In this document: one piece after another, positions 1,947 through 20,500 of the stretch
Layout: each line of letters opens with the position of its first letter
How positions within the stretch are numbered: the first letter of the stretch is position 1
Source of the DNA: Candidatus Gottesmanbacteria bacterium RIFCSPHIGHO2_02_FULL_39_11
Lineage (GTDB): Bacteria; Patescibacteriota; Microgenomatia; 2-02-FULL-39-11
Direction: 5' to 3'
DNA: 64,000 nucleotides
Assembly: GCA_001779195.1 (NCBI GenBank)
Contig: MFJL01000026.1
Location: 3,226-67,225 of the forward strand
The notes under the pieces: generated by a model
Told to the model about the DNA's origin: nothing
Database searches by the model: none
The model's input: the letters and a program-made list of their open reading frames with translations, nothing else
Position numbers and translations under genes: made by a program

Positions 1947-2771
1947 TTATTTTGAAGTTTTTTTACTTTCATGTTTTGCTACCTTTAGCATGAACCAAAC
2001 TAACAAGATTATCCCCATAAGAACAGCAATATCTAATAGGGGATTTGAAAGTTTTGAAGACAGGTTGAAAATAAATGTCCGAAGATTTTTGGCATAAGCC
2101 TCGTTTTCATCCATTATGATCTTATCGGTAAGCGCCATATAAGCGATAATAACTGATGACACCATAAAGAGAACACTTGCTGCCAGTTTTAAGGGTTTTT
2201 CTGTTTTGCTTTTTATCTTATACAGATACTGATTGGTAAGCTTTTCATAAAATAAGGATAGAAAAAAAAGAGGAAAGACTATTCCTAAAACGTAGACAAA
2301 TGAAACGATAAGAGAAGTAAGAATTGTCGGGGATAAGGATGATAGAGTAATTGCTGCAAATAGGACAGGGGCACAGCAGGATGAAGTAATGCCAGAAAAA
2401 AGTCCTAATACATAGGTCGAGAAAACGGTCGTTTTGGTTGGCATGGTAAAGTGAGGAAGCGGTAGCATCAGTTTGGTATCAAAAAGGGTCATTAACCCCA
2501 GAAGAAACATAAGAAGAGCTCCTAATAAGTAGGTAGTAGTATGAAACTGGTCAAACACCGAGACAATGATTTTCATGCCAAGCGCAACCGGAACGAGTAT
2601 CGAGCCTAAGCCTAGAGCGAATACTAGTGTCAGAAGAACAATCCGTTTCCTTTCCTTAAAAATAGTACCTAAATAGGAAGGAAATAAAAAAGTGATACAG
2701 CAGGGGGCAAAAAGGGCTACCATTCCGCCTAAAAAAGATGCCGTTAGTGATACTCCGAAAAGTGCAGTCAT
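1947..2771 (-). CDS. ccdA: cytochrome c biogenesis / thiol-disulfide transporter CcdA (DsbD TM-domain family)
   Basis: Polytopic membrane protein with paired-Cys motifs (APCCITF, SSCCAPV) and CcdA-like topology. It is the last gene of the copper operon. Confidence 0.55.
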   Translation of the reverse strand: MTALFGVSLTASFLGGMVALFAPCCITFLFPSYLGTIFKERKRIVLLTLVFALGLGSILVPVALGMKIIVSVFDQFHTTTYLLGALLMFLLGLMTLFDTKLMLPLPHFTMPTKTTVFSTYVLGLFSGITSSCCAPVLFAAITLSSLSPTILTSLIVSFVYVLGIVFPLFFLSLFYEKLTNQYLYKIKSKTEKPLKLAASVLFMVSSVIIAYMALTDKIIMDENEAYAKNLRTFIFNLSSKLSNPLLDIAVLMGIILLVWFMLKVAKHESKKTSK

Positions 2772-2773
2772 AA

Positions 2774-3286
2774 CTAGTTTACATTCGCCTTAACGGTAAA
2801 ATTCAACCTCGGATTATTCGGGTCATTTGTCTCCATAAACACGTCACGACTTACCTCTCCTTTAACCGGCATGATAAAAGGACGATATATAACAGATAAA
2901 GTTGCTTTCTTCCCCGGAGCAATTGTTCCAACCCATGGATTTTTGGAGTGCATGGAGAATTCAGGACTTACTTTCCCATCGATGGTTATCTGACCATAAG
3001 TACAATCACACGATGAGCTTATCTTAAAAAGGGAAAGAGGTTTCAGGCCGTTATTAACGATCGTAAATTCTGCAGATTTCTCATCTTTAACATTCATATT
3101 TCCTAGATCGGAAAAGAAAGATGATACGCTCGCCTCCGGCTTCTCTTTATCGTTTGCTCTGTAACTGGTTATATTGGAAGCTGCCTGGCTCTGTTTTCCT
3201 TCATTAATGGAAAAAAGAACAATGAGTACCAAAAGAAGCACGGTAATTCCGCCAATAATGTAAAAAACTAGCTTGTCCGTACCCAT
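2774..3286 (-). CDS. DUF1573-like membrane-anchored beta-sandwich protein
   Basis: N-terminal TM helix followed by a soluble domain with an SCDCT motif resembling the DUF1573 SCGCT signature. The assignment is inferred from memory of that family. Confidence 0.35.
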   Translation of the reverse strand: MGTDKLVFYIIGGITVLLLVLIVLFSINEGKQSQAASNITSYRANDKEKPEASVSSFFSDLGNMNVKDEKSAEFTIVNNGLKPLSLFKISSSCDCTYGQITIDGKVSPEFSMHSKNPWVGTIAPGKKATLSVIYRPFIMPVKGEVSRDVFMETNDPNNPRLNFTVKANVN

Positions 3287-3288
3287 AT

Positions 3289-6246
3289 TTACTTTCCGGA
3301 GCTGACTCGGACATTTGACATCGGTTTTTCAGGTGTTGCCATGGTTGAGCTAATTTTGGCAAATCCGGCAAAGATTAAACTAAAAATAATAATCATGACA
3401 GTAGGAGCAATAAATGATAGGTAGTTTCTGCGGTGCGGCTGAAAATAGCGTAGAGTCAGAGAATTACTAACCACTGATACAGACGACAAGGCCATAGCAA
3501 GTCCGGCAAGTTCCGGTTTGAGCACCAGTCCGGCAAATGCCAGCGCTCGTGCTGCAACCGGAATTCCAATCACATTGTAAAACAGGGCAAAGAACATATT
3601 CTGTTTGATTTTACCCATCGTTTCTTTTGATAAGTTAATTGCTGTCGCGACATCTCTTAAATCATTTTTTACAATGACAATTCCCCCCGCTTCCATAGCC
3701 ACATCGGTTCCAGAACCCATAGCAATTCCTAAATCTGCTTGTGCTAGAGCCGGAGCATCATTAATACCGTCTCCGACCATGGCAACCGTCTTACTTTGTT
3801 CCTGAAGTTTCTTCACCTCGCTTGCCTTATCCTGAGGCAATACTTCTGCAAGAACATTGGTTATTCCTAATTGTTTGGCTATAGCTTCTGCCGTTTTCCG
3901 GTTATCGCCCGTTATCATATAGACAGCTATATTCTTTGCTGTTAGTTTTTGAATGGCTTCCCGGGATGTCTCTTTGAGAGTATCCGCAACGGCAACAGTA
4001 CCTATAATTTCTTTGTTGTTGGAAAGAAGCATTACCGTTTTTCCTTGTTCCTCAAGTCGTACTACTTTTCTGTCGACTCTATCAATTGGTAAGCCGACAA
4101 CATCAGTTGTCAGTTTTCTATTTCCAAAATAATACGTTTCACCGTTAATAACCCCTTGTACTCCGTGTCCGGCAATTGCCTTAAACTGCTCGACTCCGGA
4201 TGTTTTTATCGATTCTTCATTTGCATAAGTTACGATTGCCTCAGCCAAAGGATGCTCAGAAGAACGCTCAAGACTTGCTGCAAGAGAAAGAACATCGTTC
4301 TCATCAAAGTCAGAAAAGCAATCGACGTCAGTAACTACAGGCTTACCGTTTGTCAGTGTGCCCGTCTTATCAAAAATTACAACATTCACCTTACAAGCCT
4401 TTTCAAGCGGCTCACCGCCTTTTATTAATATGCCGTGTTCAGCACCTTTTCCGGTTCCTACCATAAGAGCGGTTGGAGTTGCCAGTCCCAACGCGCATGG
4501 ACAGGCGATGACTATCACTGCCGTAAATGCCATAAGTGCATAGGAAAGCGGTGCACCGATTACAAAAAACCATACAACAAAGGTAAGAAGTGCAATCGCA
4601 ATTACAGCCGGGACAAAGTATGCTGATATTTTATCGGCGAAAGCTTGAATAGGAGCTTTGCTTCCTTGAGCTTCTTCAATAAGTCTGATTATCTGAGACA
4701 ATGTTGTTTCCGATCCCACACGGGTTGCTTCAAATTCAAAACTGCCCATCTTATTCATAGTAGCGCCAATAACTGTATCACCAATATTTTTCTCAACCGG
4801 GATACTTTCACCGGTTACCATGGACTCGTCAATACTTGATGAACCCTTTATTATTTTCCCGTCAACTGGTATCTTTTCACCCGGTCTAACCAAAATAACA
4901 TCTCCTTTAACTACTTCATCAATCGGTATATCTAGCGTTTGATTGCCGCGCACCACTCGTGCAGTTTTTGCCTGAAGACCCATCAGCTTTTTTATGGCGT
5001 CTGATGTCTGTCCTTTAGCACGAAGTTCGAGCCATTTTCCTAAAAGAACAAAGGTAATAAGAAATGCCGCTGTTTCAAAATACAGTTCAGGAATTTTTTC
5101 TCCGTTTAGACCAATAAATGAACCGGTCCTAAGACTGTAGAATAGAAAATTATAGATACTGTATAGAAATGCAGTTGACGTTCCGATTGCTATAAGACTG
5201 TCCATATTAAACGTCTTCATACGAAGAGCAGATATCATTCCTTTATAGAAACTGTTTCCTAAGAAGATTTGGACCGGTGAGGCAAGAAGAAAAGAGATAG
5301 CTCCTACATACGGAAGTAAAATAGTCTTTCCCGGAATGAAAGGGAAGAAGTCAAAAAGCATAAAGTAGAGCATGGGAAAACTTAGCACAAAACCCATAAT
5401 GAATTTATTACGGGCTTTTTTTATTTCTTTCTGCCTTTTTTTTGACTCGAAAGTAGCATCTTTCTGATTGACAATTTCCGCTTTATATCCTGCTCTCTCC
5501 ACGGCCTTAATCAGTAAGTCAACAGACGTTTTTGCTAGGTTAAAATCAACGAGAGCTTTTTCTGCCGCGAAGTTGACATTTGCCTGCGATACGCCATCTA
5601 CTTTTTTTAAGGATCTCTCGATAATTGCCGCACAGGAGGAACAGTGCATCCCTGAAAGGGATAGATTGACTCTTGTAGTTTGAGATGCAATATTTTCCTG
5701 TTTTTGTATGCTTTTATTTTCTCTATCTTTCCCAATTTCAGGTGTATTTGCAGAAGATGTGATTCCGTCAAAAAGTCTGATTACATCAAGTGAAGAGACA
5801 AGATTCTCTAAATACTCCTTAGACGTTTTTTGATTTTCCGGAACAGATACCTTTACTTGGCGGTTGTTCTTGAGCACTCCTTCAAAATACGATTTACCTT
5901 CAGGATCTTGTCGTACTTTTCCTTCGGCTACGATTTCCGATTCCAATGAAAACTTAAGAGGTTTTCCTGTTGGAATAACTTCTTGCTCTATATTCATTCC
6001 ATTTCCCAATACAGCATTCCCATTTCCGTTACTTTCAACTTTCGCTTCATATCCGGCACGAGCAATGGCAGAAACAATATTCCGTAATGATCCGTCATTA
6101 TCATCTGCTACCAGACTGGCAGCACCTGTTTTATGATCGATGGATCTCACCTGTACCCCAGGAATTTCCGACAGTTCATCTTTAATAAGAGCTTCACATG
6201 AACTACAATGCATTCCCGAGATAGTAAAGTTTATGTTTGTTGTCAT
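3289..6246 (-). CDS. copA: copper-translocating P1B-type ATPase with multiple N-terminal HMA domains
   Basis: HMA motifs GMHCSSC (x2), TM CPC motif [11 protein letters not shown], phosphorylation site FDKTGTLT, hinge [10 protein letters not shown]; 985 aa. Confidence 0.9.
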
Positions 6247-6249: not shown

Positions 6250-6465
6250 TTATGCTTCTAAAACGGTATAGGGCATACCCGACAGTGCAGTGATAATATC
6301 GGACACTTTCAACTCATTGCTGCTTGTTATCGTCGTTTCTCCGTTATTGTTTTTAATCGCCACATCTGTAACTCCTGTAAGCCTTCCCACTTTTTTCTTA
6401 ATCAATTTGACACAAGCTTCGCAGGTTATCCCTGAAATTTTTAAAGTTAAAGTGTAATTATTCAT
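6250..6465 (-). CDS. copZ: copper chaperone (HMA domain protein, CopZ-like)
   Basis: 71 aa with GITCEACV metal-binding motif; its start overlaps copA. Confidence 0.8.
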   Translation of the reverse strand: MNNYTLTLKISGITCEACVKLIKKKVGRLTGVTDVAIKNNNGETTITSSNELKVSDIITALSGMPYTVLEA

Positions 6466-8228
6466 AGAACTTTGATAACTCCCCGTGGTACACCCATTGC
6501 ACAGGTAATAGGATAATTTCCTTTTCCATTCGGGGTGAAATTGAAGGTAATTGTTTTACCTTTCGCCAAATATTGAGGATCATCTACCAGTCTTGGAATA
6601 GTTATGGTTCCCATGCACCCCGACCCGTTATCTTTAACATCTATTTCCATCCTTACCGGTGTTCCAGCTTTTACAGAAAACTCATTAGGAGAAATATCCC
6701 GGTCAGCAGTATATGTTGTTTTTATAACCTGTACGGCACCTTCCCGTTTTGCTTCTTGGGCAACAACGGGTTGTTGGACAGCTTGTTTTGCCCCTCCTCC
6801 ACAACCGCAACCGCCCGTCCCGCATGATACTCCGCTTTTTGCCGGCGGTGCCTGCGCAACTGCATCCGTACTTTTTTCAACTACATTAAAAACTCCCGTA
6901 TACATGCCCATACTGCATGAGAAAGGCAATCTTCCAACGTCTGTTGGGGTAAATTCTATGGTATTGTCACCTAATTCAAGATTTTTCCGTATGCCAAGGC
7001 GGGATATAATGATGGCACTGGCACACGTATTAGAATCAGTTGAGTTGATTTCCCATTTCACCGGAACATCTTTTACGACAGTAAATATATTCGGATTATA
7101 TCCGTTTGCCGACTGCGTCATCTTAACGACTTGAAAACCATCCACAATAGTATTGACAGAAGATGCAGCCAATACATTCTGATTAGAAGAAAAAAGATAT
7201 GCAGGAGATAATCCCATCAAATTTAATCCGTTTTGAGCATTGAAAAACGCTAGTATTGTAACGACAACACCGGCAAATTTGAAGAATTTTTGGGCAAAAT
7301 ATCCTTTGATGACGGATGTCACTCCTCCGACACCTAATAATCCGGGAGCAGTACCCAAAGCAAAAATACCCATGATGGTGGCCCCTCTGATAAAACTGCC
7401 GCTACTCATAGCCAAAAGCTGCATCGCTTGGGTAAAACCGCAGGGAAGAAAAAAAGTCAATCCGCCCAGGATGAATGCATTTTTATGACTGTATTCTTTA
7501 TTCTGCTGCTCTTTTATCCCCAACGCCTTACTTATTCCTGTTGGAAGAGTGAAATGGGCATTGCTGATCCTGGGAAACAGTCCGGTAAGTTGCAATCCGA
7601 GCATCAACATAACCAGAGCTACTCCCAAGGTAAGAAGACCTAAACCAAAGCCAGATAGCTGAAAAAATGATCCGATTAGGCCAATAACACCGCCCAGTAT
7701 TACGTAAGAGGTGATTCTTCCGAAATTAAAAAAAAGATGGGGTTTAAATTTTTCATACACTGATGCATTAGGATTTTTTTCTGAAAAACGGGCAGATACC
7801 CCAAGCACCAGACCTCCCACAAGCGCCATGCAGGTAGAGAGACCTGCGGTTATTCCTATCAGGAATATGGGTATCAGACCGGACGGACGGGAAATAGAAG
7901 TACTGAATAATTTGTTTAAACCAAATATATCGACAAGAATAAAAAGAAAGGAAAGCACAATAACTGAAATGATAATATCTTTGTAGTCATTAATGTTTTT
8001 AGAAAAAAGCGGTTTTTCCTCCTCGTAACCAACTTGATACCCTGCCCGCTCTACTGACTGTATAATTGTGCCATCATTTAAGTAGTTTTCGTGATAAAGT
8101 TCTGCACATTTTTTCCGCTGGGAAACGGTAACTTTTTTCACTCCGGGGATGTCTTTTAATTCATCCTCAATTAAAAGTTCGCAGGATCTGCAGTGCATTC
8201 CTTGAATTGGAACAGTAGTGATTCTCAT
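6462..8228 (-). CDS. fusion protein: N-terminal HMA domain, polytopic permease-like membrane domain, Cys/Gly-rich linker, two C-terminal cupredoxin-like domains
   Basis: N-terminal GMHCRSC HMA motif; ~8 predicted TM helices (TauE/SafE- or CcdA-like); GCGCGGG linker. Two tandem beta-rich repeats end in C..M motifs (SCSMGM, TCAMG) reminiscent of cupredoxin/CopC-like copper sites. Confidence 0.5.
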   Translation of the reverse strand: MRITTVPIQGMHCRSCELLIEDELKDIPGVKKVTVSQRKKCAELYHENYLNDGTIIQSVERAGYQVGYEEEKPLFSKNINDYKDIIISVIVLSFLFILVDIFGLNKLFSTSISRPSGLIPIFLIGITAGLSTCMALVGGLVLGVSARFSEKNPNASVYEKFKPHLFFNFGRITSYVILGGVIGLIGSFFQLSGFGLGLLTLGVALVMLMLGLQLTGLFPRISNAHFTLPTGISKALGIKEQQNKEYSHKNAFILGGLTFFLPCGFTQAMQLLAMSSGSFIRGATIMGIFALGTAPGLLGVGGVTSVIKGYFAQKFFKFAGVVVTILAFFNAQNGLNLMGLSPAYLFSSNQNVLAASSVNTIVDGFQVVKMTQSANGYNPNIFTVVKDVPVKWEINSTDSNTCASAIIISRLGIRKNLELGDNTIEFTPTDVGRLPFSCSMGMYTGVFNVVEKSTDAVAQAPPAKSGVSCGTGGCGCGGGAKQAVQQPVVAQEAKREGAVQVIKTTYTADRDISPNEFSVKAGTPVRMEIDVKDNGSGCMGTITIPRLVDDPQYLAKGKTITFNFTPNGKGNYPITCAMGVPRGVIKVL

Positions 8229-8289
8229 AAAATATCTATACCCATCTTACTCAGGTTTGCAACTAGAATAGTTGCAATAGCTCACTTAG

Positions 8290-8322
8290 CACTGTAAAAT
8301 TTTTTAAAAAAAATTTACAGTG
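8290..8322. promoter_or_regulatory. palindrome cactgtaaaa-AT-ttttacagtg, copy 2, ~65 nt upstream of the copper operon start
   Basis: Near-identical to 904-936. It is followed upstream by a second perfect palindrome tactgaaaaa-ggcg-tttttcagta (8336-8359) and a direct repeat ttttcagtatat (8351-8362, 8393-8404). Confidence 0.55.
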
Positions 8323-8639
8323 TAAAATGGGTTTATACTGAAAAAGGCGTTTTTCAGTATATATGCTGGAAAAACATATTTCAACCTCGAGTTTTTTCAG
8401 TATATTAGGTAATTTTAGTAATAACGACTATCTTACCAATACAGTTATTAAGATTTTATGAGTACCGGGCACAAAAAATTTATTCGTATTATTTCCTTTC
8501 CTTTTTCGTGATCTCCTTGGCGAAATAAATGATACCGAGAATAAGAAAAACAATAACTAATAACCATATCAGTGAACCAAATATTCCCCAGCCAGACATC
8601 ATATTTGAGTAATATCCCATCATAATAAGCCACCTCCTT

Positions 8640-12287: not shown

Positions 12288-12353
12288 AGAATAGATTAAG
12301 AAATCGTGAGATTATTATCCAGTATTAATCAGGGTTGAACTTTTTGCTTCCAA

Positions 12354-12372
12354 TTACTACAATTAGTAGTAA
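12354..12372. promoter_or_regulatory. palindrome ttactac-aatta-gtagtaa immediately upstream of blaI/copY-like start
   Basis: Perfect 7-bp arms; ends 6 nt before the ATG at 12378. It shares the ACTAC/GTAGT core with the 13763-13781 palindrome. Confidence 0.5.
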
Positions 12373-12758: not shown

Positions 12759-13731
12759 GCATTTGTTCATTTTTTCAAGTTTATTATTTCTTCTGACTGC
12801 GAGTTATTTTTTTGTTTTAGTGAAGTTTTTTCCACTACTGGTACACCATACCTTTTATTACTGTCAAGAAATGGCAAAGGTAATATCTTTGAGCCTTCCG
12901 GGGAACTGGGGAGTTGTTGTCTTTGGGATATTAATTATTTCGGTTCTTTACACCGCATTCAAATTATTTGCTACCATCGTTCAAGTTTATAAGTTTCGTC
13001 AGTTGTTGTCCCGATCCATTGTCAAGAATCATGAACTTTCAGATATTTTCAAATCTCTCAAGCTTGTAGATAAAGTGGTCGTATTACATGAAACTAAGCC
13101 ATTTGCATATTGTTTTGGAGTAAGAAACCCAAAAATCTTTATTACTATTGGTTTAATTGCAATGGTTAATAGAAAGGAACTTGAGGTTATTTTACGCCAC
13201 GAAAAGTATCATCTGGAACATCGGGATAACCTAATTTTACTGGTAGCAACATTTATTGAGTCTCTATTCCCTTTTTTCCCAATACTTACGGACCTTATCC
13301 GTATTTACAAGACAGATCGGGAATTACTAGCAGATCAGGCTGCTATCCATAGAGAAGCAGATAAACATTCCCTTTCGTCTATTTTGAAAAAACTCCTTCA
13401 ATATGAACCCGTAACACTACCTGCATTGGCTCCCGCAATTGCTGATGTTGATACACTTGAGACTCGTATAAAATCATTGCTTTCAATTAAAGTAGATTAT
13501 CCTAAGCTAGGAAAAAGAAATTCGCTTCTCAGTATAATTTCCATTGCCGCACTCATGGCGCTTATGAGAACTTCTGTACATGCAGTAGAACTTCATAGGG
13601 ACGGCTTGGATATAATGATAGTCTGTAATGGAAATGTCAGCTGCGAATCTGTCTGTAAAGACCGCAACTTGATCAAATCGCAAAGTATCAGCTCTTCGTA
13701 CACTTCTAAAAACTTCTCCGCAAACAACTGA
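12745..13731 (+). CDS. M56-family (BlaR1-like) membrane metalloprotease / antirepressor without a penicillin-binding sensor domain; His/Cys-rich extracytoplasmic tail
   Basis: HEXXH motif (RHEKYHLEHRD) between TM helices. An in-frame ATG at 12745 overlaps the repressor stop by 14 nt. After the last TM the C-terminus reads HAVELHRDGLDIMIVCNGNVSCESVC. Confidence 0.7.
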   Translation: MRINKHLFIFSSLLFLLTASYFFVLVKFFPLLVHHTFYYCQEMAKVISLSLPGNWGVVVFGILIISVLYTAFKLFATIVQVYKFRQLLSRSIVKNHELSDIFKSLKLVDKVVVLHETKPFAYCFGVRNPKIFITIGLIAMVNRKELEVILRHEKYHLEHRDNLILLVATFIESLFPFFPILTDLIRIYKTDRELLADQAAIHREADKHSLSSILKKLLQYEPVTLPALAPAIADVDTLETRIKSLLSIKVDYPKLGKRNSLLSIISIAALMALMRTSVHAVELHRDGLDIMIVCNGNVSCESVCKDRNLIKSQSISSSYTSKNFSANN

Positions 13732-13762
13732 TATTTTATCTGTTGACAAATGGTTAATATAC

Positions 13763-13781
13763 CTACTACACTTTGTAGTAG
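13763..13781. promoter_or_regulatory. palindrome ctactaca-ctt-tgtagtag (TACA-N3-TGTA) upstream of the dsbA-MCO operon, preceded by TTGACA at 13743-13748
   Basis: Perfect 8-bp arms seen in sequence. It resembles BlaI/CopY operator half-sites (TACA/TGTA). Confidence 0.55.
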
Positions 13782-13801
13782 ATTCTAACTATTTTTATTT
13801 T

Positions 13802-14566
13802 ATGCCGGAAAACTTATCCACTCTGAAAATAAACACAGTGTTTGCGGGATTTTTAATCGTTGCTTCATTTATCATTGGTTCTTTATGGACAAAAGTGCAG
13901 TATCTCGAGAAGGGAGCTTCACAACCTGCGCTGGCTGCCGATAACCCAAGTGCCGATGTGCCTGCTCCAATTGTCGCTCCAGGGGATAATGGTGAGCCGG
14001 TAAAAGTATCAATTGATGACGATCCTGTATTGGGAGATAAGAACGCAAAAGTGACATTGATAGATTTTTCAGATTACGAATGTCCTTTTTGTAAACGACA
14101 TTTCGATGAAGTCTATCCACAACTGAAGAAAGACTATATTGATACGGGAAAAGTCAAAATGGTTTTTCGCGACCTTCCTTTGAGCTTTCATCAAAATGCT
14201 CCCAAAGAGGCTGAGGCCGCTGAGTGTGCAAGAAAACAAGGCGGTGACCAGATGTACTACAAGTACCACGACCAAATCTTTACCAAAACCACTTCCAACG
14301 GAACAGGCTTAGCTCTTGACCAGCTACCAGTTATAGCCAAAGACTTAGGGCTGAATATAGGTCAGTTTCAACAGTGTCTTGATTCCGGCGAATTTAAAGC
14401 GGAAGTCGATAAAGACTTAGCCGATGCAGCTAAAGTCGGGGCTAGTGGTACACCTACGTTTTTTATCGGTAAATCAACAAGCAATGGCGAGATAGACGGC
14501 ATCAAGGTGGTTGGAGCACAACCGTACAGCGCTTTTAAGACAATTATTGATGAAAAATTGAAATAA
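13802..14566 (+). CDS. DsbA-like thioredoxin-fold thiol:disulfide oxidoreductase (membrane-anchored)
   Basis: N-terminal TM segment; CPFC active site in YECPFCKRHF context; DsbA-family length. Confidence 0.7.
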   Translation: MPENLSTLKINTVFAGFLIVASFIIGSLWTKVQYLEKGASQPALAADNPSADVPAPIVAPGDNGEPVKVSIDDDPVLGDKNAKVTLIDFSDYECPFCKRHFDEVYPQLKKDYIDTGKVKMVFRDLPLSFHQNAPKEAEAAECARKQGGDQMYYKYHDQIFTKTTSNGTGLALDQLPVIAKDLGLNIGQFQQCLDSGEFKAEVDKDLADAAKVGASGTPTFFIGKSTSNGEIDGIKVVGAQPYSAFKTIIDEKLK

Positions 14567-14573
14567 TATATGT

Positions 14574-15089
14574 ATGGACAAATCAATCTTTTCCAGTCGA
14601 CTGCTTTTGCCTACAGTAATAATTTCTAGCCTCTATCTTTTAATAACAATACTTCTTATGAATCGCAGTTTAACTGTTGATACACTTTTTGGAACATACT
14701 CTCTTGACTACAAAGGTCAAATAATTATTTCACTTATAAGCGGTATGTGGACTTCGATGACTGACATGGGTTTGTTTCTTCTTGTGATAGCTTCGGTGCT
14801 TACCGGTCTTAACATTTCCCTTTTAGTAGATCGCTTGAACAAGTTAAAAAAGTTAGCGAAGCTTCATTTAGTGGTTGGAGGAAGTTCAATTCTGGGAATA
14901 GTAGGAAGCGGTTGTGCGGCCTGTGGATTGCCAATTCTAGCCCTTCTGGGATTAAGCGGAAGTGCTGCATATTTGCCTCTGAGGGGCATGGAACTGTCGT
15001 ACTTTTCTGTCTTAATATTATTATTTTCTTTTTATTTTTTGGTTAAAACTGATACCCGTCAATCTTGTACTATTAATGTAAATAAATAA
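14574..15089 (+). CDS. small polytopic membrane protein with CAAC motif (possible DsbB/VKOR-like or metal-handling partner)
   Basis: ~4 TM helices; GSGCAACGLP motif; immediately downstream of the DsbA-like gene. No confident family match. Confidence 0.3.
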   Translation: MDKSIFSSRLLLPTVIISSLYLLITILLMNRSLTVDTLFGTYSLDYKGQIIISLISGMWTSMTDMGLFLLVIASVLTGLNISLLVDRLNKLKKLAKLHLVVGGSSILGIVGSGCAACGLPILALLGLSGSAAYLPLRGMELSYFSVLILLFSFYFLVKTDTRQSCTINVNK

Positions 15090-15097
15090 ACGTCTAT

Positions 15098-16165
15098 ATG
15101 GATACAGAATTTTTACTCAAAAATAAATATGTTTTAGTTGTTCTGACAGTAGTCTTTTTGGCTGTTGTCTTTTTCCAAATAAATAAATCAAAAAGTGGCG
15201 TAACACTCAAAAACACTCCGGCGCAGTTATCGATATCAGGGGAGAATGAAACCGCACTTAAGGCTATGGAAGCGATTCCACAAGATAATGTCCCTATGGC
15301 AACAGAAAAACAAGGCCTTCAGGAATTGCCATTTAAAGTGGAAAACGGTGAGAAAGTTTTTAATCTGACTACCCAACCGGTGAAGTGGAATATTTTAAAA
15401 GATGTTACGGTGACGGCTTGGGCATACAATGGAATGATTCCCGGACCGCTCATCCGTGTAACTGAGGGGGACAAAGTGAAAATTTTAGTCAAAAATAATT
15501 TGTCTGAGCCTACCACTATCCATTGGCACGGGATTCAAGTTCCTAATAATATGGATGGTATCCCCGATGAGACGCAAAAACCCATTGCTCCGACAGAAAC
15601 ATTTACCTATGAATTCATAGCAAAGCCGGCTGGTACTTATTGGTACCATTCCCACTATGATAGCGATAAGCAAATCTCGGTGGGGCTCTCCGGTGCCTTT
15701 ATTATAGAACCGAAAGGTGGACTAGCCTCAAAGCCGGATATCGACAAAATTCTTATGCTTAATGAATGGCGTGTCATTGATGATCAAACCTATGCTGCTA
15801 TGCCGGCAACGGGAATGGATGGCAACTTCTTTACCATTAACGGTAAAGCATTCCCTGAGACTGAAACGCTGAATGTTAAGATTGGCCAGAAGGTGAGATT
15901 GCGCTTTATAGGAAGCGGCCAGATGATCCACCCGATGCATTTGCATGGATTCCCCTTTAAAATAGTGGCAACTGACGGCAACGATGTGCTGGAATCTGCC
16001 CAATGGATAAAGGATACCGTCTCGGTGGCTCCCGGTGAGCGGTATGATGTCGAATTTACACCTGATCGGCCAGGCAAATGGATGCTGCATTGTCATATAC
16101 CCCATCACACGACTAACGAACATGTTGAGCCCGGTGGGCTTATGATGATTGTTAATGTTACTTAA
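15098..16165 (+). CDS. two-domain multicopper oxidase
   Basis: All four MCO His motifs are present (HWHG, HSHY, HPMHLHG, HCHIPHH). At 355 aa it is a small two-cupredoxin-domain MCO, and it has an N-terminal TM/signal segment. Confidence 0.8.
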   Translation: MDTEFLLKNKYVLVVLTVVFLAVVFFQINKSKSGVTLKNTPAQLSISGENETALKAMEAIPQDNVPMATEKQGLQELPFKVENGEKVFNLTTQPVKWNILKDVTVTAWAYNGMIPGPLIRVTEGDKVKILVKNNLSEPTTIHWHGIQVPNNMDGIPDETQKPIAPTETFTYEFIAKPAGTYWYHSHYDSDKQISVGLSGAFIIEPKGGLASKPDIDKILMLNEWRVIDDQTYAAMPATGMDGNFFTINGKAFPETETLNVKIGQKVRLRFIGSGQMIHPMHLHGFPFKIVATDGNDVLESAQWIKDTVSVAPGERYDVEFTPDRPGKWMLHCHIPHHTTNEHVEPGGLMMIVNVT

Positions 16166-16185
16166 TTTATTTATAAAGAGGACTT

Positions 16186-16596
16186 ATGAACAATAAAAAT
16201 CTACTCGTTGTGTTAGCAATTGCAGTTGGTGTTCTAGTAATACTCGGATTCAAATTGATGAATACTTCCGGTTCAAGTTCACCATCAAATAATGGAAGAA
16301 ACGCACAGGTGAGTTTAACCACTGATCCAGACCCGCTTAAAATGGGACAGGCAACCTTTATTATTGACGTTAAAGATCAGACCGGCAAGCCAGTCGATAA
16401 TGCGACGGTATTTTTCGATCTCAATATGACCGCTATGAACATGGGAACCCAACAGGGAAACGCCACTTCCCAGGGTAATGGTAGGTACGCAGCCTCCGGA
16501 AGGATGAGCATGCGCGGTCCCTGGAAAGTGACAACAAAAGTCACTATGCCGGACAGTAGTGTTGTGAATAAAGATTTTACAGTCAATGTTCCTTAA
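16186..16596 (+). CDS. YtkA-like / periplasmic copper-binding Ig-like domain protein
   Basis: N-terminal TM/signal, then a Met-rich beta domain (FFDLNMTAMNMGT...GRMSMRGPWKVTTKVTMPD) resembling the YtkA/FixH-like domain found in copper operons. Confidence 0.4.
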   Translation: MNNKNLLVVLAIAVGVLVILGFKLMNTSGSSSPSNNGRNAQVSLTTDPDPLKMGQATFIIDVKDQTGKPVDNATVFFDLNMTAMNMGTQQGNATSQGNGRYAASGRMSMRGPWKVTTKVTMPDSSVVNKDFTVNVP

Positions 16597-16632: not shown

Positions 16633-16905
16633 TTACTTATTCTTAAGAAGATGGTTATATATAAAAGCAAAGATATATCCGGTAATCCATGCAGATACTG
16701 TAAATGTAACCAGACCCCACAACATCGTACCTATCTCAGGCGGAGATCCCCTCCATATCTGAGATAGATCTGCCCCATGTGCCCACGAAATAGCAATACT
16801 TTTGTATAAGTCAGGAGCAATATAGATAAGTGAAGCACAGACTATATAGTAAGCTCCGGCCATTATTGCTAAACTATGTGCAGCAACTTTTTCATTTAAC
16901 TTCAT
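16633..16905 (-). CDS. small hydrophobic membrane protein, function unknown
   Basis: 90 aa with 2-3 predicted TM helices. Confidence 0.3.
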   Translation of the reverse strand: MKLNEKVAAHSLAIMAGAYYIVCASLIYIAPDLYKSIAISWAHGADLSQIWRGSPPEIGTMLWGLVTFTVSAWITGYIFAFIYNHLLKNK

Positions 16906-16993: not shown

Positions 16994-17173
16994 CTATTCT
17001 GACAACATTTTCCGTGACGGCGATAATACCAAAGATAGAAATATTTTATTCCTGCCTTCTTCCCTTAAAATCAAAAGATAACCTGAAGAAATCAGAAAAA
17101 AAAGAAGAGTTCCGCAGCAAAAAAGATGAAGTGCCAAAAATGGCAATATTCCGGTAATAACTTTTTTCATCAT
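16994..17173 (-). CDS. unannotated 59-aa membrane ORF with vicinal CC motif (HLFCCG)
   Basis: Hand-translated: MMKKVITGILPFLALHLFCCGTLLFF.... It starts 10 nt downstream of the 17183 stop and is below the 60-aa threshold of the ORF track. The CC-in-TM pattern recalls MerT/MerE-type metal handling. Confidence 0.3.
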   Translation of the reverse strand: MMKKVITGILPFLALHLFCCGTLLFFLISSGYLLILREEGRNKIFLSLVLSPSRKMLSE

Positions 17174-17182
17174 TAAACCCCG

Positions 17183-17401
17183 TTAATGTTTGTGACCGCC
17201 GTCCTTCATCATCCAAATGTGCATTAACGGACAAGCCAGAAGTACTGCTCCAAAGAATACCGTACTTACCGGGATTCGAAAAATAGTCACCGCTACAACC
17301 GCCAAAGCTATTAGTCCTAAACACATACCGAGCCACCTTAGAGATGAGTCTTGAGCCTTAACAGCAGAAAATGTACTCGAATGATCATTATGGTTTTCCA
17401 T
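17183..17401 (-). CDS. DUF2933-like small His-rich membrane protein
   Basis: 72 aa: an HNDHSS N-terminus, one TM helix, and C-terminal CPLMHIWMMKDGGHKH. It resembles the DUF2933 family seen in metal-resistance loci (from memory). Confidence 0.35.
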   Translation of the reverse strand: MENHNDHSSTFSAVKAQDSSLRWLGMCLGLIALAVVAVTIFRIPVSTVFFGAVLLACPLMHIWMMKDGGHKH

Positions 17402-17466
17402 ATTTTCACCTCCTTTTACTGCATTATAGAAATCAGATTATGAAGATTTCGTTAATTATGTGAAGT

Positions 17467-18864
17467 TTAAGTACCGGGAAAGGATATAGATACTGTGGTA
17501 CCATGTTCTACTTTGCTGTCGATATCTATTTTCCCGTGATGTGAGGAAATGATAGCCTGAGCAATCGCAAGACCAAGCCCGGAGCCTGAAGCTTTCTCAT
17601 TCTTTGACGCTCTATAAAACCGTTCGAAAATATGGGGCAGATCTTTTTTAGCAATTCCAGTGCCATTGTCTTTTATCTCTACATGAACCAGATTCCTTAT
17701 CTTATGTAACATAATGGTAACTGTTCCATTCTCGTGTGTGTACTTCATTGCGTTATCAACAATATTTAGTATGGCATGGAATAATTTATCTCTTTTCCCG
17801 TGTATTTTAATATCCGGCGCGGTTTCTCCGGTAATTTTAATATTTTTAGAAGAAGCCATTTTTGTCGCCAGTTCGCGGATTTCCTCCAGAAGCTCTGAAA
17901 GATCAAAAACTTCAAAATGAGCAGTAACATCCGCTTCTGACCACGCAAGATCCAAAATGTTTTCCAGCGTTTGCGACATTCTTTTATTATCGATAAGTGT
18001 TTCATCCAAAGCCTTTATATACTCATTTTTTCCTCTCTCTTTTAAGCGTATAATCTCGATATTGCTTCTTTGGGTAGCCAGAGGAGTTTTCAGTTCATGG
18101 GCTACATCTCCAATAAATTGCCGTTCCCTTTTAAATGCCGAATTTAACCGGTCCAAAAGACTGTTAAAAGTTACTGCTAATTCTTTAATCTCGTCATTAG
18201 TGTCGGGAGTATCTACTCGTTCATCAAGATTTTCGTGGCTTATCTTTTTCAGTTTTTCAGAAATGGATGCGATGGGTGCAATCGCGCTTTTGGCGAGAAG
18301 GTATCCCCCAAAAACAGTCGGCAATAAAAATACTACAAAAACGGCTCCAAGTATCAGGAGTAAATTGTTTAGAGAGTTTTCAATCACGTCAATCGGATGA
18401 CCGACAAACACAACCCCATACAACTGATTGTTTTTATAGATGGGGTCAATCCAGAAACGCATTCTAAGATCAGAAATAGTGTGATCTGTAATATGAGGGG
18501 ATTTTGCCGTCGCGGCTTGTTCAAAAAGTTGAGATAGTTTTTTATCGGATCGGTTAACGGTAACGGAACTGCCTACAATATTGCCGGTACTATCCATCAA
18601 AATTACAACCATTCCAGGAATATCGCTAAACTCAGAAAGAAAAGCATTTCGTGCCATCATCTGACATGTTTGACAGGATAGGTTCCCTTCTTTTGTGATC
18701 ACTTCAACAATCGAATTTCCGTGTGATTTAAGTGTTGCATCCGTTTGTGAATATAGAGTGTTTTTTGTAATGAGATAAAAACTGGCAAAAATGACTAGAG
18801 ATGCTATAAAAAAGGCAAGGGAATACCAAACCGTTAGACGAAATCTGACACTTCTCGTATTCAT
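17467..18864 (-). CDS. sensor histidine kinase (CusS/CopS-like)
   Basis: Two TM helices flanking a periplasmic domain containing CQTCQMM, then HAMP, HisKA H-box (HELKTPLA) and HATPase N/G boxes (DNGTGI, GSGLGL). Confidence 0.85.
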   Translation of the reverse strand: MNTRSVRFRLTVWYSLAFFIASLVIFASFYLITKNTLYSQTDATLKSHGNSIVEVITKEGNLSCQTCQMMARNAFLSEFSDIPGMVVILMDSTGNIVGSSVTVNRSDKKLSQLFEQAATAKSPHITDHTISDLRMRFWIDPIYKNNQLYGVVFVGHPIDVIENSLNNLLLILGAVFVVFLLPTVFGGYLLAKSAIAPIASISEKLKKISHENLDERVDTPDTNDEIKELAVTFNSLLDRLNSAFKRERQFIGDVAHELKTPLATQRSNIEIIRLKERGKNEYIKALDETLIDNKRMSQTLENILDLAWSEADVTAHFEVFDLSELLEEIRELATKMASSKNIKITGETAPDIKIHGKRDKLFHAILNIVDNAMKYTHENGTVTIMLHKIRNLVHVEIKDNGTGIAKKDLPHIFERFYRASKNEKASGSGLGLAIAQAIISSHHGKIDIDSKVEHGTTVSISFPGT

Positions 18865-19535
18865 ATTGATTCACTTATTTTATATCCGACACCGTGCAGG
18901 GTATGGATAAGTTTAACTTTCGCTCCTTTATCTACCTTACGCCTGATTGCAGCAAGAAAAACATCTACAACATTGCTCATGCTGTCAAAGTTATAGTCCC
19001 AGACATGTTCAATGATCATGGTTCGTGAAACAACTTCATCTTTATGACGGAGTAAAAGTTCCAGGACTGAAAATTCCTTAGGAGTAAGGGTAATAGGTTT
19101 TCCATTTCTTGTTAATAGATGTTTAATCGGATCCAGTTCCAAATCGGCAACACTTAGCGTGGGTGATGATTCCCCTTTACTGCGTCTTATAAGTGCGTGT
19201 ATTCGCGAGCGAAGTTCCAGATAGGCGAAAGGTTTTGTAATATAATCATCTGCTCCGCTATCAAGGCCGATAACTTTCTCTTCAAGCGTAGCACGGGCAG
19301 TGAGCATAAGGATTGGAGTTTTAATATTTTTCTTACGAAGTTCTTTGCAGATGGTTATCCCATCTGCTTTTGGCAGAGTTATATCCAATATAATAAGATC
19401 ATATTCTTCAGATTCTGCAAGATATTTTCCTTCTTCCCCATCATAAGCGATATCTACAGCAAATCCTTCTTCCGTAAGACCTTTTTTGACTACATTTGCA
19501 AGGCGCCTCTCATCTTCTACAAGAAGTATTCTCAT
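18861..19535 (-). CDS. OmpR-family response regulator (CusR/CopR-like)
   Basis: Receiver domain (MRILLVEDE, DLIILD) plus winged-helix trans_reg_C; it overlaps the kinase gene by 4 nt. Confidence 0.9.
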   Translation of the reverse strand: MRILLVEDERRLANVVKKGLTEEGFAVDIAYDGEEGKYLAESEEYDLIILDITLPKADGITICKELRKKNIKTPILMLTARATLEEKVIGLDSGADDYITKPFAYLELRSRIHALIRRSKGESSPTLSVADLELDPIKHLLTRNGKPITLTPKEFSVLELLLRHKDEVVSRTMIIEHVWDYNFDSMSNVVDVFLAAIRRKVDKGAKVKLIHTLHGVGYKISESI

Positions 19536-19598
19536 AGCCTCTGATTATACACCAAAAAGGTTAAGATTTTATGAAGTTTCCGGTTAGGAACAATATAC

Positions 19599-19913
19599 TT
19601 GACAAGTATATTAGTAATTGCTAATATAGTTAAGATGAAACACGATGTTATTTCCGCATTATGCAATCCGGTGAGACTTAAACTTATTCTCTGCCTTGCC
19701 AGAAAAAGCAAAAACGTACAAGAGCTTATACATACCTGTGGTTTATCTCAGTCGGCAGTTTCCCAACATTTAAATAAGCTAAGAAAAGCCGGGTTAGTAA
19801 AAGATCGAAAGGAAGGTCTATTTATTTATTACTCACTAAAGTATCCTAAAACCGCAAAAATTGCTGAGATGGTTATTAAATTTACTAAGGAGATACGGAA
19901 TGAAAAACAATAA
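19599..19913 (+). CDS. ArsR/SmtB-family metalloregulatory transcriptional repressor
   Basis: HTH CGLSQSAVSQHLNKLRKAGLV; the ALCNPVRLKLI region is typical of the ArsR family. Confidence 0.75.
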   Translation: MTSILVIANIVKMKHDVISALCNPVRLKLILCLARKSKNVQELIHTCGLSQSAVSQHLNKLRKAGLVKDRKEGLFIYYSLKYPKTAKIAEMVIKFTKEIRNEKQ

Positions 19914-20166
19914 AAGTATCACGCATGTAAAATTATACTCAACATTAACCTGTCCGTACTGCATCATGGAACAATCATGGTTAGAAAGTAAAAAGATACA
20001 ACATGAAGTTGTTCATGTGGACCTAAATCCGAAGGAGGCGGAATATATGGTAGAAAAGACCGGACAGATGGGAGTTCCGGTAACGGAGATTGGCTATAAG
20101 GACGGAAAAATGGAATATGTTATCGGATTTGATCAAACGCATCTGGAACAGATTTTACATGTTTGA
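19900..20166 (+). CDS. glutaredoxin-like protein (thioredoxin fold, CPYC)
   Basis: TCPYC active-site motif. ATG at 19900 follows AAGGAGA, overlapping the arsR 3' end. Confidence 0.7.
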   Translation: MKNNKSITHVKLYSTLTCPYCIMEQSWLESKKIQHEVVHVDLNPKEAEYMVEKTGQMGVPVTEIGYKDGKMEYVIGFDQTHLEQILHV

Positions 20167-20500
20167 TATTACAGAACCTCAAGTTCCGGAAATTACCGCA
20201 GAAAACGTAAAAAAATCCATCGATGCAAAAGAGGGAGCACTTCTACTGGATGTCCGGACTGCCGGAGAATACTTGCGTGGAAAAATTGAAGGAAGCATAA
20301 ATATACCGGTGGATGAAGTGACAAACTTCGTCGAATCGGTTGTCCCGGATAAAAGTCATACCATATACGTTTATTGTCTGTCTGGCTCCCGAAGCGTTCA
20401 TGCGGTTAGCACAATGGTAAAACTGGGATACACGCGTGTCTACAATATGATAAACGGCTTACTGGCGTGGCGGGCAAAGGGTTACCCGGTAGAAGGATAA
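20159..20500 (+). CDS. single-domain rhodanese (sulfurtransferase)
   Basis: Rhodanese fold with active-site loop CLSGSRS (CxxGxR type). Its ATG overlaps the glutaredoxin stop. Confidence 0.75.
   Translation: MFDITEPQVPEITAENVKKSIDAKEGALLLDVRTAGEYLRGKIEGSINIPVDEVTNFVESVVPDKSHTIYVYCLSGSRSVHAVSTMVKLGYTRVYNMINGLLAWRAKGYPVEG

Follow-up and report, generated by a model that had tools for sequence, protein, structure and literature searches.

Gene content of the segment

Here we describe an 18.5-kb segment (positions 1947-20500; locus tags A3D77_075xx) of a 64-kb stretch of DNA, hereafter the window, from the metagenome-assembled genome of an uncultured, ultra-small bacterium, Candidatus Gottesmanbacteria bacterium RIFCSPHIGHO2_02_FULL_39_11 (contig MFJL01000026.1). 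We consider it likely that this segment is a chromosomal, lineage-typical copper-homeostasis supercluster of Gottesmanbacteria, assembled from modules that can be reshuffled and run by three separate regulatory circuits; conserved synteny and shared promoters both speak for a coupling of the cluster to extracytoplasmic thiol chemistry. Genes were called from a listing of open reading frames (ORFs) together with Pfam and NCBIfam scans, and an Rfam scan of the window returned only tRNA. For comparison, we fetched about 80 related loci (labelled L001 onward; 1.34 Mb), 78 of which were scanned for the operator motif, and we collected 67 loci with relatives of the fusion protein described below by scanning one genome per species. 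The nearest relatives of the window's proteins come from Gottesmanbacteria, Roizmanbacteria and other Patescibacteria. Literature searches returned no account of this cluster in the candidate phyla radiation.

A preliminary description, made from the sequence alone, had listed the genes of this segment and assigned many of them copper roles. All of the genes that it named were found in place or nearly so, with support from hidden Markov models (HMMs), which also back the copper roles. The list was nearly complete, lacking a DUF5676 gene and a conserved 44-aa peptide.

An efflux operon headed by a fusion protein with CupA-type domains

The leftmost genes form an efflux operon on the minus strand (8228 to 1947), in which fusion protein, CopZ, CopA, DUF1573 protein and a 274-aa protein follow one another with gaps or overlaps of 0-3 nt:

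6462-8228, minus strand: fusion protein, 588 aa, with HMA, DsbD_2 and two Cupredoxin_1 domains (Pfam)
6250-6465, minus strand: CopZ-type HMA chaperone, 71 aa, GITCEAC (PF00403, 1.7e-12)
3289-6246, minus strand: CopA, P1B-1 Cu(I)-exporting ATPase, 985 aa, two N-terminal HMA domains (Pfam, NCBIfam)
2774-3286, minus strand: membrane-anchored immunoglobulin (Ig)-like DUF1573 protein (PF07610, 1.2e-9; PF22544, 4.7e-11)
1947-2771, minus strand: CcdA/DsbD-superfamily membrane protein, 274 aa, last gene of the operon (family profile)
8229-8446, minus strand: leader of the operon, about 200 nt (repeats, alignment to L004)

The fusion protein begins with a cytoplasmic HMA domain (CxxC), followed by a first transmembrane (TM) helix, TM0, a six-TM DsbD_2 domain and two cupredoxin domains of the CupA Cu(I) type with a Cys/Gly-rich linker between them. 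Two Cys of the DsbD_2 domain (STCM, LPCG) are conserved in at least 90% of 62 sequences, and the CupA-type motif C.M.M is present in 61 of 62 homologues. The first of the C-terminal domains shows direct sequence homology to Streptococcus pneumoniae CupA and to the CopA metal-binding domain; in the match to CupA (2MRY/4F2E; phmmer E=2.7e-9), C...FSCSMGM aligns to C...FACGMNM. Counts of Lys plus Arg per loop across the 62 homologues (3.6, 6.5 and 3.6 inside versus 0.3, 0.2 and 0.1 outside) give a topology with the N terminus inside, seven TM helices and the C terminus outside. Thus, the Cu(I) domains of the fusion protein are predicted to sit outside the cell, unlike CupA. The Cys pair of CupA can reduce Cu(II) and then requires a re-reductant (PMC5646241). 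We infer that the fusion protein could pass electrons outward so that the external Cu(I) ligands stay reduced, or else relay Cu(I) itself across the membrane by way of thiols.

By title or by similarity, 63 of the 67 fusion-protein loci look like Patescibacteria, the other four being Chloroflexota/Anaerolineae at 28-33% identity; several of the titles evidently belong to mislabelled bins. A copA gene lies downstream of the fusion gene, on the same strand and within 1.8 kb, in 59 of the 67, and four more are cut by contig ends. CopA itself carries the P1B-1 signature (CPC, YN, MxxSS, DKTGT, and N-terminal HMA domains with two GMHCSSC motifs) and scores 640 bits against TIGR01511 (cut-off 397).

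The 274-aa protein had been called ccdA in the preliminary description, a name that holds in part: no Pfam model scored above threshold, and a family profile matches the Thermus thermophilus CcdA (5VKV) over its full length (residues 8-210, E=4.8e-9). Vicinal Cys pairs occur in both half-repeats (FAPCC, SSCCAP), and the first Cys of each pair aligns with a redox Cys of CcdA. The protein is, as judged from these alignments, a CcdA homologue for which the label ccdA-like is acceptable. It has more than 2300 homologues, of which the best 120 are 66-92% identical and, where named, mostly from Gottesmanbacteria. Its gene is paired with that of the DUF1573 protein in L004, L005, L006, L009, L012, L014 and L076, and the pair lies within or beside copper operons in seven genomes. 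Since the SC-x-CT (CxC) motif of the DUF1573 partner is invariant in eight homologues, the pairing suggests that the CcdA-like protein relays reductant to this CxC site.

The leader of the operon contains palindromes at 8257-8277, 8290-8322 and 8334-8361, and the predicted RNA fold is strong (-52.4 kcal/mol, z=-5.5). These palindromes are not conserved upstream of homologues, and we ruled them out as operators. Instead, they consist of what is left of a csoR-type gene (its 3' end and terminator) together with an AT-rich hairpin that occurs a second time in the window. The relic (8237-8420, plus strand, hence antisense within the leader) comprises the last nine codons (YTHLTQVCN*) and the terminator region, and it aligns to L004 13960-14150, where a CsoR-type gene (113 aa, PF02583) is intact between copA and the DUF1573 gene. 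The repeated hairpin is a 49-nt AT-rich palindromic element (CACTGTAAAAT...ATTTTACAGTG) present at 900-948, after a hydrolase gene, and at 8286-8334, in the relic terminator region, with 92% identity between copies; it resembles a repetitive extragenic palindromic (REP) or terminator-type hairpin rather than an operator, and it is absent from related loci.

A BlaI-M56 pair and two candidate operators

On the plus strand, a block from 12378 to 16596 encodes a BlaI-family repressor, an M56 protease, a DsbA-like protein, a 171-aa membrane protein, a two-domain multicopper oxidase (MCO) and a YtkA-like protein:

12355-12371, plus strand: candidate BlaI-type operator 1, TACTACAATTAGTAGTA (motif match, conservation)
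12378-12758, plus strand: BlaI/MecI-family repressor, 126 aa (PF03965, 2.4e-27, full length)
12745-13731, plus strand: M56 (BlaR1-like) membrane metalloprotease, 328 aa, true start 12745 (PF05569, 4.8e-13)
13764-13780, plus strand: candidate BlaI-type operator 2, TACTACACTTTGTAGTA (motif match, conservation)
13802-14566, plus strand: membrane-anchored DsbA-like oxidoreductase, 254 aa, CPFC (PF13462, 4e-30; PF01323)
14574-15089, plus strand: 171-aa membrane protein of a family without a Pfam model (alignments, synteny)
15098-16165, plus strand: membrane-anchored two-domain MCO, 355 aa (Pfam Cu-oxidase_3, Cu-oxidase_2)
16186-16596, plus strand: YtkA-like secreted or anchored Ig-fold protein (PF13115, 3.5e-14)

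The repressor matches MecI (1OKR) at E=3.6e-11, and its ASF aligns to the LNF motif of MecI with the Phe shared; in MecI and BlaI, the LNF motif holds the scissile bond. The C-terminal half of the repressor has no Cys, so the CxCx4CxC motif of CopY is absent, and the CopY-type box TACANNTGTA (the TACAnnTGTA cop box) does not occur within the cluster, with one chance-level match outside it. A CopY-type repressor was ruled out on these grounds.

The protease has its HExxH motif as HEKYH, and the best match of its AlphaFold2 model is Staphylococcus aureus BlaR1 (8EXP, also 8EXR; probability 1.0). It has no penicillin-binding domain, ending about 45 residues past the last TM helix in a tail that carries E-x-H...C-x5-C-x3-C. 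Both this tail motif and HHxxYYCQEM in loop 1 are kept across 65 homologues; in the alignments C40 is invariant, and H34, E282, H284 and C294 are at least 90% conserved. Loop 1 and the tail, with their His, Cys and Met residues, are predicted to face outward. Among the 79 homologues, all those with a named source are from Patescibacteria.

The sequence TACTAC-N5-GTAGTA has exactly two matches in the 64 kb, beginning 23 nt before blaI and 38 nt before dsbA, and both lie 15-18 nt downstream of a TTGACA-like -35. The -10 overlapped by operator 1 is TACAAT, in the blaI-M56 promoter (-35 TTGAAC at 12335); for operator 2 it is TACACT, in the promoter of the dsbA operon (-35 TTGACA at 13743). Both -10 boxes are sigma-70-like. 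In the relaxed form TACNAC-N5-GTNGTA, the motif occurs in only 5 of the 78 scanned loci. Four of these carry BlaI and M56 (L009, L076, L077, L078) and have it at the same two positions: operator 1 is conserved in place in L077 and L078, and operator 2 upstream of dsbA in all four. The fifth match lies in apparent coding sequence; otherwise the motif is absent where no BlaI gene was seen.

This arrangement has its nearest precedent in PetR/PetP, a copper-dependent BlaI/M56 switch for plastocyanin and cytochrome c6 in Synechocystis. In both, the stop of the BlaI-family gene is overlapped by the start of a gene for an M56/M48 protease without a beta-lactam sensor domain, and the operator is an inverted repeat spaced by 5 nt, GAC-N5-GTC there and a TAC-N5-GTA core here. 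The regulons differ, consisting of electron carriers in Synechocystis and of the DsbA-like, 171-aa, MCO and YtkA genes here; PetP has two Met in the TM2-TM3 loop, whereas the window's protease has HHxxYYCQEM in the first outer loop and a Cys-rich C-terminal tail. We regard the pair as analogous to a PetR/PetP-type switch in architecture and operator form only.

A DsbA-like protein with a 171-aa partner, a multicopper oxidase and YtkA

The genes for the DsbA-like protein, the 171-aa protein, the MCO and the YtkA-like protein are spaced 7-20 nt apart behind one putatively operator-controlled promoter, an arrangement conserved in four other genomes. This bears out, with a candidate BlaI-type operator added, the earlier placement of dsbA in a copper operon. 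The closest solved relative of the DsbA-like protein is Bacillus subtilis BdbD (3EU3, 3e-18), with ScsC proteins at 1e-9 to 1e-6.

The 171-aa protein belongs to a family of 1424 cluster representatives (clusters at 50% identity) for which we found no Pfam, NCBIfam or PDB relatives, the Pfam result being blank even for distant members. Its members share an invariant GSGCAxCGLP, which places a CxxC in a predicted TM helix, and an invariant C-terminal Cys. The gene comes directly after that of a DsbA-like protein in the window, as it does in 11 of the 12 other loci with a family member, and 10 of those 12 are copper clusters. The proposal that the family replaces DsbB in organisms without DsbB is weakened by two loci (L080, L082) in which DsbB-DsbA and DsbA-like/171-aa pairs lie side by side. 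Since the pairs coexist there, the 171-aa protein would be a second, distinct partner system rather than a substitute for DsbB. By analogy with DsbA/DsbB and DsbC/DsbD, this suggests two parallel extracytoplasmic thiol pathways in some Patescibacteria. In L082, both thiol pairs are found within one operon headed by BlaI-M56.

The MCO holds all four Cu-ligand motifs, HWHG (HWH), WYHSH (HSH), HPMHLHG (HxxHxH) and HCHIPHH (HCH), and its closest solved relatives are the two-domain enzymes 3G5W (2.6e-57) and 2ZWN. It has an N-terminal signal anchor and no twin-arginine motif; thus, metallation with four Cu must occur outside the cell. In L076, which is otherwise syntenic, the MCO gene is reduced to fragments (9308-9638), and the DsbA-like, 171-aa and YtkA genes are retained. 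The YtkA-like protein contains the Met-rich motifs NMTAMNMG and RMSMRG, and its gene follows the MCO or the DsbA module in L071, L076, L077 and L078.

A two-component system and its candidate box

A minus-strand block from 19535 to 16633 encodes a response regulator (RR), a histidine kinase (HK) and small membrane proteins, and two promoters in the segment carry a candidate RR box:

18861-19535, minus strand: OmpR-family RR, scoring best as CopR/CusR type (TIGR01387, 3.1e-76, below the trusted cut-off)
17467-18864, minus strand: sensor HK, scoring best as heavy-metal (CztS/SilS/CopS) type (TIGR01386, 4.8e-69, below the trusted cut-off; Pfam)
17183-17401, minus strand: DUF2933 protein with two TM helices and a CPLMHIWMM...GGHKH tail (PF11666, 22.1 bits)
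16994-17173, minus strand: 59-aa ORF with an HLFCCG motif, a doubtful gene (ORF only, weak ribosome-binding site)
16633-16905, minus strand: DUF5676 protein with two TM helices (PF18926, 1.1e-17)
19560-19575, minus strand: candidate RR box TTCATAAAATCTTAAC, at the -35 of the RR-HK promoter and upstream of an extended -10, TGGTGTATAAT
8430-8462, minus strand: putative efflux-operon promoter, with candidate RR box CTCATAAAATCTTAAT (8462-8447) and then an extended -10, TGGTAAGAT (8438-8430)

The box, CTTCATAAAATCTTAAT, takes the form CTTCA[TC][AG]AAATCTTAA(T) and lies at -35, 9-10 nt ahead of the extended -10; the copy at the efflux operon differs from that at the RR promoter by one mismatch. We found 10 matches in the 1.34 Mb, nine of which are sense-oriented and precede copper-cluster genes by at most 230 nt; these nine come from seven genomes. 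Outside the window, boxes precede copper genes in L004 (three sites), L012, L071, L076 and L078. The presence of the box at the RR-HK promoter implies autoregulation. Taken together, the genes around the two-component system (TCS) and the conservation of the box point to a copper role; the RR is 91% identical in L004.

The CQTCQMM motif that had been noted in the periplasmic part of the HK is real, but it is a three-residue insertion found only in the window and L004, and we ruled it out as a conserved metal site. The DUF2933 gene lies directly downstream of the HK gene, and homologues 35-57% identical stand beside the HK in L004, L005, L076, L077 and L078. The 59-aa ORF, with its CC motif, had also been listed in the preliminary description. 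It is doubtful as a gene: a search of the 80 related loci found no homologue (best E=0.012, spurious), not even in loci that retain the adjoining genes. Homologues of the DUF5676 protein occur in the copper clusters of L008, L014 and L077.

A putative thiol-stress module with an SqrR-like regulator

The right end of the segment holds three overlapping genes on the plus strand:

19599-19913, plus strand: ArsR-family regulator, SqrR/BigR-like, probable start 19635 (PF01022)
19900-20166, plus strand: glutaredoxin/NrdH-like protein, CPYC, start overlapping the arsR stop (PF00462)
20159-20500, plus strand: single-domain rhodanese, loop CLSGSR, start overlapping the glutaredoxin stop (PF00581, 7.7e-18)

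The best solved relative of the regulator is the persulfide sensor SqrR (6O8K, 1e-11), and the equivalent of SqrR C41 is conserved; the second, C-terminal Cys of SqrR is absent. The known ArsR metal ligands (alpha3N CxC; alpha5 His/Asp/Glu) are not found in the protein, which has a single alpha3 Cys (ILCLA) and no alpha5 His. It had been counted among the copper regulators, a role that does not agree with this lack of metal-sensor ligands and its greater likeness to SqrR. A palindrome, ATATTAG-N6-CTAATAT (7-6-7; 19608-19627), overlaps the arsR -10 and is unique in the window. Because an SqrR-like ArsR gene is joined to overlapping genes for a CPYC glutaredoxin and a rhodanese, the operon looks like a thiol/persulfide stress module. 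The cis-elements point to three separate regulons, rather than layers of regulation on the same genes as had been proposed.

A second ATPase unit

Between the efflux operon and blaI lies a second minus-strand unit (12287 to 8489):

11607-12287, minus strand: ICMT/PEMT-family membrane methyltransferase (Pfam)
10873-11487, minus strand: CDF transporter, membrane domain only, 204 aa (PF01545, TIGR01297)
8640-10826, minus strand: second P1B ATPase, 728 aa, with an HMBD domain (Pfam, NCBIfam)
8489-8623, minus strand: 44-aa Met/Gly/Tyr-rich peptide with a single TM helix, MMGYYSNMMSGWG...LGIIYFAKE (sequence, homologues)

The second ATPase is 45% identical to CopA. It has an N-terminal HMBD zinc-ribbon-like domain and a Met-rich stretch, and it keeps YN and MSISS (MxxSS); its CPD places it with neither the CPC (P1B-1) nor the CPH (P1B-3) enzymes. 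CPD is shared by the homologues in L012 (70% identity) and L031 (58%), and relatives at about 40-44% identity have CPH. CPD marks a rare, functionally uncharacterised P1B subtype (PMC5552934). Directly 3' of this ATPase gene, the 44-aa peptide has a strong ribosome-binding site. Homologues stand beside copper ATPases in L004 (66%), L078, L076, L021 and L030, and L002 and L003 have a called 44-aa gene at the same position. The N-termini of SHOCT proteins in L074/L075 resemble this peptide.

The CDF transporter has an N-terminal CC and, in alignment to ZnT8/ZnT4, a Cys in place of the TM5 transport-site His (WICSRND; D, D, C, D). The only homologue that we detected (L026 19287-19883) keeps both the CC and the transport-site Cys, and we know of no described CDF site that bears a thiolate. 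Upstream of the gene are a degenerate element like the RR box and a TATAAT (11571-11540). The ICMT-family gene is divergent from blaI, as it is in L077 and L078 (69% identity).

Synteny and composition of the cluster

The preliminary description had proposed a copper island of uncommon density. The clustering is indeed far beyond chance, given that the same arrangement recurs in other genomes, and a comparison across related genomes shows homologues that are not scattered, with modules recurring across Patescibacteria. The thiol-disulfide genes are part of this pattern, since the DsbA-like/171-aa and DUF1573/CcdA-like pairs recur in many Patescibacteria copper clusters. In L077 and L078 the layout is ICMT on the minus strand, BlaI-M56-DsbA-171aa-[DUF3105]-MCO-YtkA on the plus strand and DUF2933-HK-RR on the minus strand, and genes for an HMBD ATPase and the fusion protein lie close by. 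The same layout is found rearranged in L076, where the MCO has decayed. In Microgenomates-type genomes, the DUF1573/CcdA-like pair, TCS, DUF2933, DsbA-like protein and second ATPase join the core in varying order. Such density is therefore the norm within the lineage rather than uncommon.

The term island fits less well. Total GC does not differ between the 22 cluster genes (0.394) and the 40 other genes of the window (0.383; P = 0.29), so the composition check proposed earlier gave no shift in GC, but it did give a modest one in synonymous codon use: the relative synonymous codon usage (RSCU) distance of the cluster is 0.41 versus 0.26±0.04 (1/1000 permutations), and GC at third codon positions (GC3) is slightly higher (0.365 versus 0.328). 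The flanking genes are housekeeping genes (Era, GluRS, Ham1, BacA and similar). Among the ORFs scanned there was no integrase or transposase; no repeats bound the cluster, and the nearest tRNA is 6 kb away. Compared with its closest relative, L004, the cluster shows a mosaic of identities (RR 91%, CcdA-like 88%, CopA 68%, fusion protein 57%, second ATPase 44%). In our reading, the cluster is chromosomal rather than a foreign island, and its modules undergo exchange and rearrangement within the lineage.

Elsewhere in the window, a low-GC patch at 22000-30000 (0.31-0.35), with a Phd/YefM antitoxin, NUDIX, HEPN and several ORFs without a Pfam match, adjoins tRNA-Gln (26349-26422) and is more island-like in composition than the copper cluster. 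The same contig holds, to the left of the window and some 3-4 kb from its edge, a gene for a further P-type ATPase, with 29% identity to CopA, and a gene resembling class A beta-lactamases (L001 10981-11887).

Comparison with known systems

Most of the components are of familiar kinds: CopA/CopZ, CupA, CcdA/DsbD, DsbA, MCO, a CopRS-like TCS, a PetRP-like BlaI/M56 pair and an SqrR-like ArsR. Their combination differs from each known system. The S. pneumoniae cop operon (CopY-CupA-CopA; 4F2E/2MRY) shares a BlaI/CopY-family repressor and the direct CupA match, but CupA is small, with one N-terminal helix, and lies on the cytoplasmic face, whereas the window has two such domains behind an HMA and a seven-TM DsbD_2 module, predicted to be outside. 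The window's repressor also lacks the CopY metal site and is paired with an M56 protease, and a classical CopZ is present in addition. ScsABCD (Salmonella, Proteus, Caulobacter) likewise combines a DsbA-fold CxxC protein with a co-encoded, copper-linked membrane thiol-redox partner. Here that partner belongs to the 171-aa family, the cluster has no ScsB-like (DsbD-like) gene, and the DsbA-like protein is nearer to BdbD than to ScsC. Patescibacteria also differ from Scs hosts in having no periplasm bounded by an outer membrane.

The Cue/Cus systems of Escherichia coli (CopA, CueO, CusRS) share the proposed logic of the cluster: Cu(I) export by an ATPase, extracytoplasmic oxidation by an MCO and an envelope-copper two-component sensor. 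The cluster lacks CueR and CusCFBA; its MCO, unlike CueO, is membrane-anchored and two-domain, with no Tat signal; and its TCS box is a direct-repeat-like element at -35 that we take to be unrelated in sequence to the CusR box. The fusion protein is like DsbD in having a cytoplasmic CxxC donor, two membrane Cys and extracytoplasmic Cys-bearing domains, but it ends in HMA and CupA folds, in place of thioredoxin or immunoglobulin ones. Unlike CcdA, the CcdA-like protein has vicinal CC pairs, and its likely client is the CxC protein of the DUF1573 family, not a factor for cytochrome c maturation.

A proposed scheme and the points against it

From the gene identities, the conserved synteny and cis-elements and the CupA motif, we infer the following scheme, including the metal that each sensor would sense, the direction in which thiols or copper would pass and each biochemical step. 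In the first circuit, a CopRS-type TCS (RR-HK, with DUF2933 downstream) would sense copper outside the cell, and the RR, through its box at -35, would activate its own promoter and the efflux operon (fusion protein, CopZ, CopA, DUF1573, CcdA-like), and probably also CDF, CPD ATPase and 44-aa peptide. The second circuit would be a proteolytic switch of BlaI and M56, analogous to PetR/PetP, with an outward His/Cys/Met face in place of a penicillin-binding domain; BlaI, bound to TACTAC-N5-GTAGTA over the -10 boxes, would repress itself and the DsbA-like/171-aa/MCO/YtkA operon. In the third, the SqrR-like ArsR would control glutaredoxin and rhodanese in response to thiol stress. Both CopA (CPC) and the CPD ATPase would receive cytoplasmic Cu(I) from CopZ, and external Cu(I) would be captured by the CupA-type domains of the fusion protein, whose Cys ligands would be kept reduced, or loaded, via the fused DsbD-like domain and the cytoplasmic HMA. 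The Sec-exported MCO would oxidise Cu(I) to Cu(II) and may be metallated from the same pool, and the CcdA-like/DUF1573 (CxC) and DsbA-like/171-aa pairs would manage extracytoplasmic thiols under copper stress.

Pushed further, these steps would make up an extracytoplasmic copper-thiol relay of Patescibacteria, in which the external CupA site is recharged, with electrons or Cu(I), via the DsbD-like and HMA domains, a family of about 175 aa with CxxC is the dedicated partner of the copper-cluster DsbA-like protein, and the Cys/His ectodomain of M56 senses copper or thiol oxidation and frees BlaI from the DsbA-MCO operon. We offer this fuller relay tentatively, as possible but on balance doubtful.

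A number of observations weigh against the reading of the segment as a copper supercluster coupled to thiol chemistry, or against parts of it. Both TCS proteins score below the trusted cut-offs of their best NCBIfam models (HK: TIGR01386, 233.5 versus 292.6 bits; RR: TIGR01387, 255.8 versus 279.2 bits), and no metal motif is conserved across an alignment of the HK sensor domain. Operators and RR boxes are candidates assigned from position and conservation only. At the efflux operon, about 200 nt of strongly structured relic leader separate the RR-box promoter from the fusion gene, and a proximal promoter is possible. The AlphaFold2 model of M56 is of low confidence at the ectodomain Cys motifs; that of the 171-aa protein has a mean confidence (pLDDT) of 68 and is poor around the CxxC, and the family could not be linked to CcdA or DsbD_2, as hhalign was not significant (E 0.08-0.38). 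In L080 the DsbA-like/171-aa pair lies outside copper clusters, beside DsbB-DsbA, thioredoxin and thioredoxin reductase, and it adjoins a DsbB-DsbA pair in L080 (2176-6549) and L082 (943-5516). Since the pair occurs outside copper clusters and alongside DsbB-DsbA, its role may be general thiol management rather than copper-specific. Finally, the CDF and CPD ATPase could handle other soft metals.

Alternative explanations

The DsbA-like and other thiol-disulfide genes might serve general envelope folding and merely adjoin the copper genes, with no functional coupling. The L080 arrangement and the kinship of the DsbA-like protein with the general oxidase BdbD rather than ScsC are in keeping with this; we nevertheless think it very unlikely, given that copper clusters make up most of the other loci with a 171-aa family member, that dsbA shares its closely spaced operon and conserved candidate operator with MCO and ytkA in four other genomes, and that the DUF1573/CcdA-like pair accompanies copper operons in seven. 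Equally little speaks for another soft metal (Ag, Hg, Cd, Zn) as the target, with the HMA-DsbD_2 protein as a MerT/MerP-like thiol relay importer. The HMA domains do also score on MerP and MerTP models, vicinal Cys pairs lie in membrane helices as they do in MerT, the transport site of the CDF includes a Cys, and the CPD ATPase subtype is uncharacterised. Against these stand a CopA with the full Cu(I) signature (CPC, YN, MxxSS), a CupA motif that is a Cu(I) site, the presence of an MCO and a CopRS-like TCS, and the absence of MerA, MerR and MerB among the ORFs scanned.

The other two alternatives concern origin and purpose. A horizontally acquired genomic island or mobile metal-resistance element, which we judge unlikely, would account for the deviating codon use and GC3, for the mosaic identity to L004 (from 91% for the RR down to 44% for the second ATPase), for the csoR-type relic as a trace of past rearrangement and for a serine recombinase beside a similar cluster in L073. 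It fits poorly with a total GC indistinguishable from that of the rest of the window, with housekeeping flanks and with the same modules throughout the lineage; moreover, no integrase or transposase was seen among the ORFs scanned, the only tRNA is 6 kb beyond the cluster, and the only long repeat pair (900-948, 8286-8334) does not bound it. Somewhat less improbable, but still rather doubtful, is that the cluster serves copper supply, that is MCO maturation, over detoxification, the fusion protein and YtkA loading the Sec-exported apo-MCO with copper pumped by CopA. An MCO with a signal anchor and no twin-arginine motif must gain its four Cu outside, where the CupA-type and Met-rich YtkA domains are predicted to lie, and there is a precedent in Rhodobacter, where MCO maturation is reported to depend on the CopA efflux pathway (PMC8456105). 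Yet the presence of two ATPases and a CDF, along with a TCS of the heavy-metal type, is what one expects of resistance, and outside the window an MCO gene is present in only six loci of the 80-locus sample (L073, L074/L075, L077, L078, L081), so that the fusion-CopZ-CopA core is usually without one; in L076 the MCO decayed and the rest was kept. Supply and detoxification are, in any case, compatible with each other.

Significance

Taken singly, CopA, CopZ, the MCO and the TCS of this supercluster are ordinary. What is new is the externalised CupA-DsbD_2-HMA architecture, at the level of predicted topology, the DsbA-partner family without a Pfam model, and a Cys/His-bearing M56 protein as putative sensor over a DsbA-MCO operon. 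An external CupA-type site wired to a DsbD-like conduit could explain what re-reduces CupA-type sites, and a large membrane family without a Pfam model that is nearly always found with a DsbA-like gene is a testable lead. After cyanobacterial PetRP, the BlaI/M56 pair would be a second predicted proteolytic switch of this kind for metal or redox sensing, here with operators and candidate ligands. Patescibacteria have tiny genomes, yet they make a recurring 18-kb investment in copper, which points to strong selective pressure.

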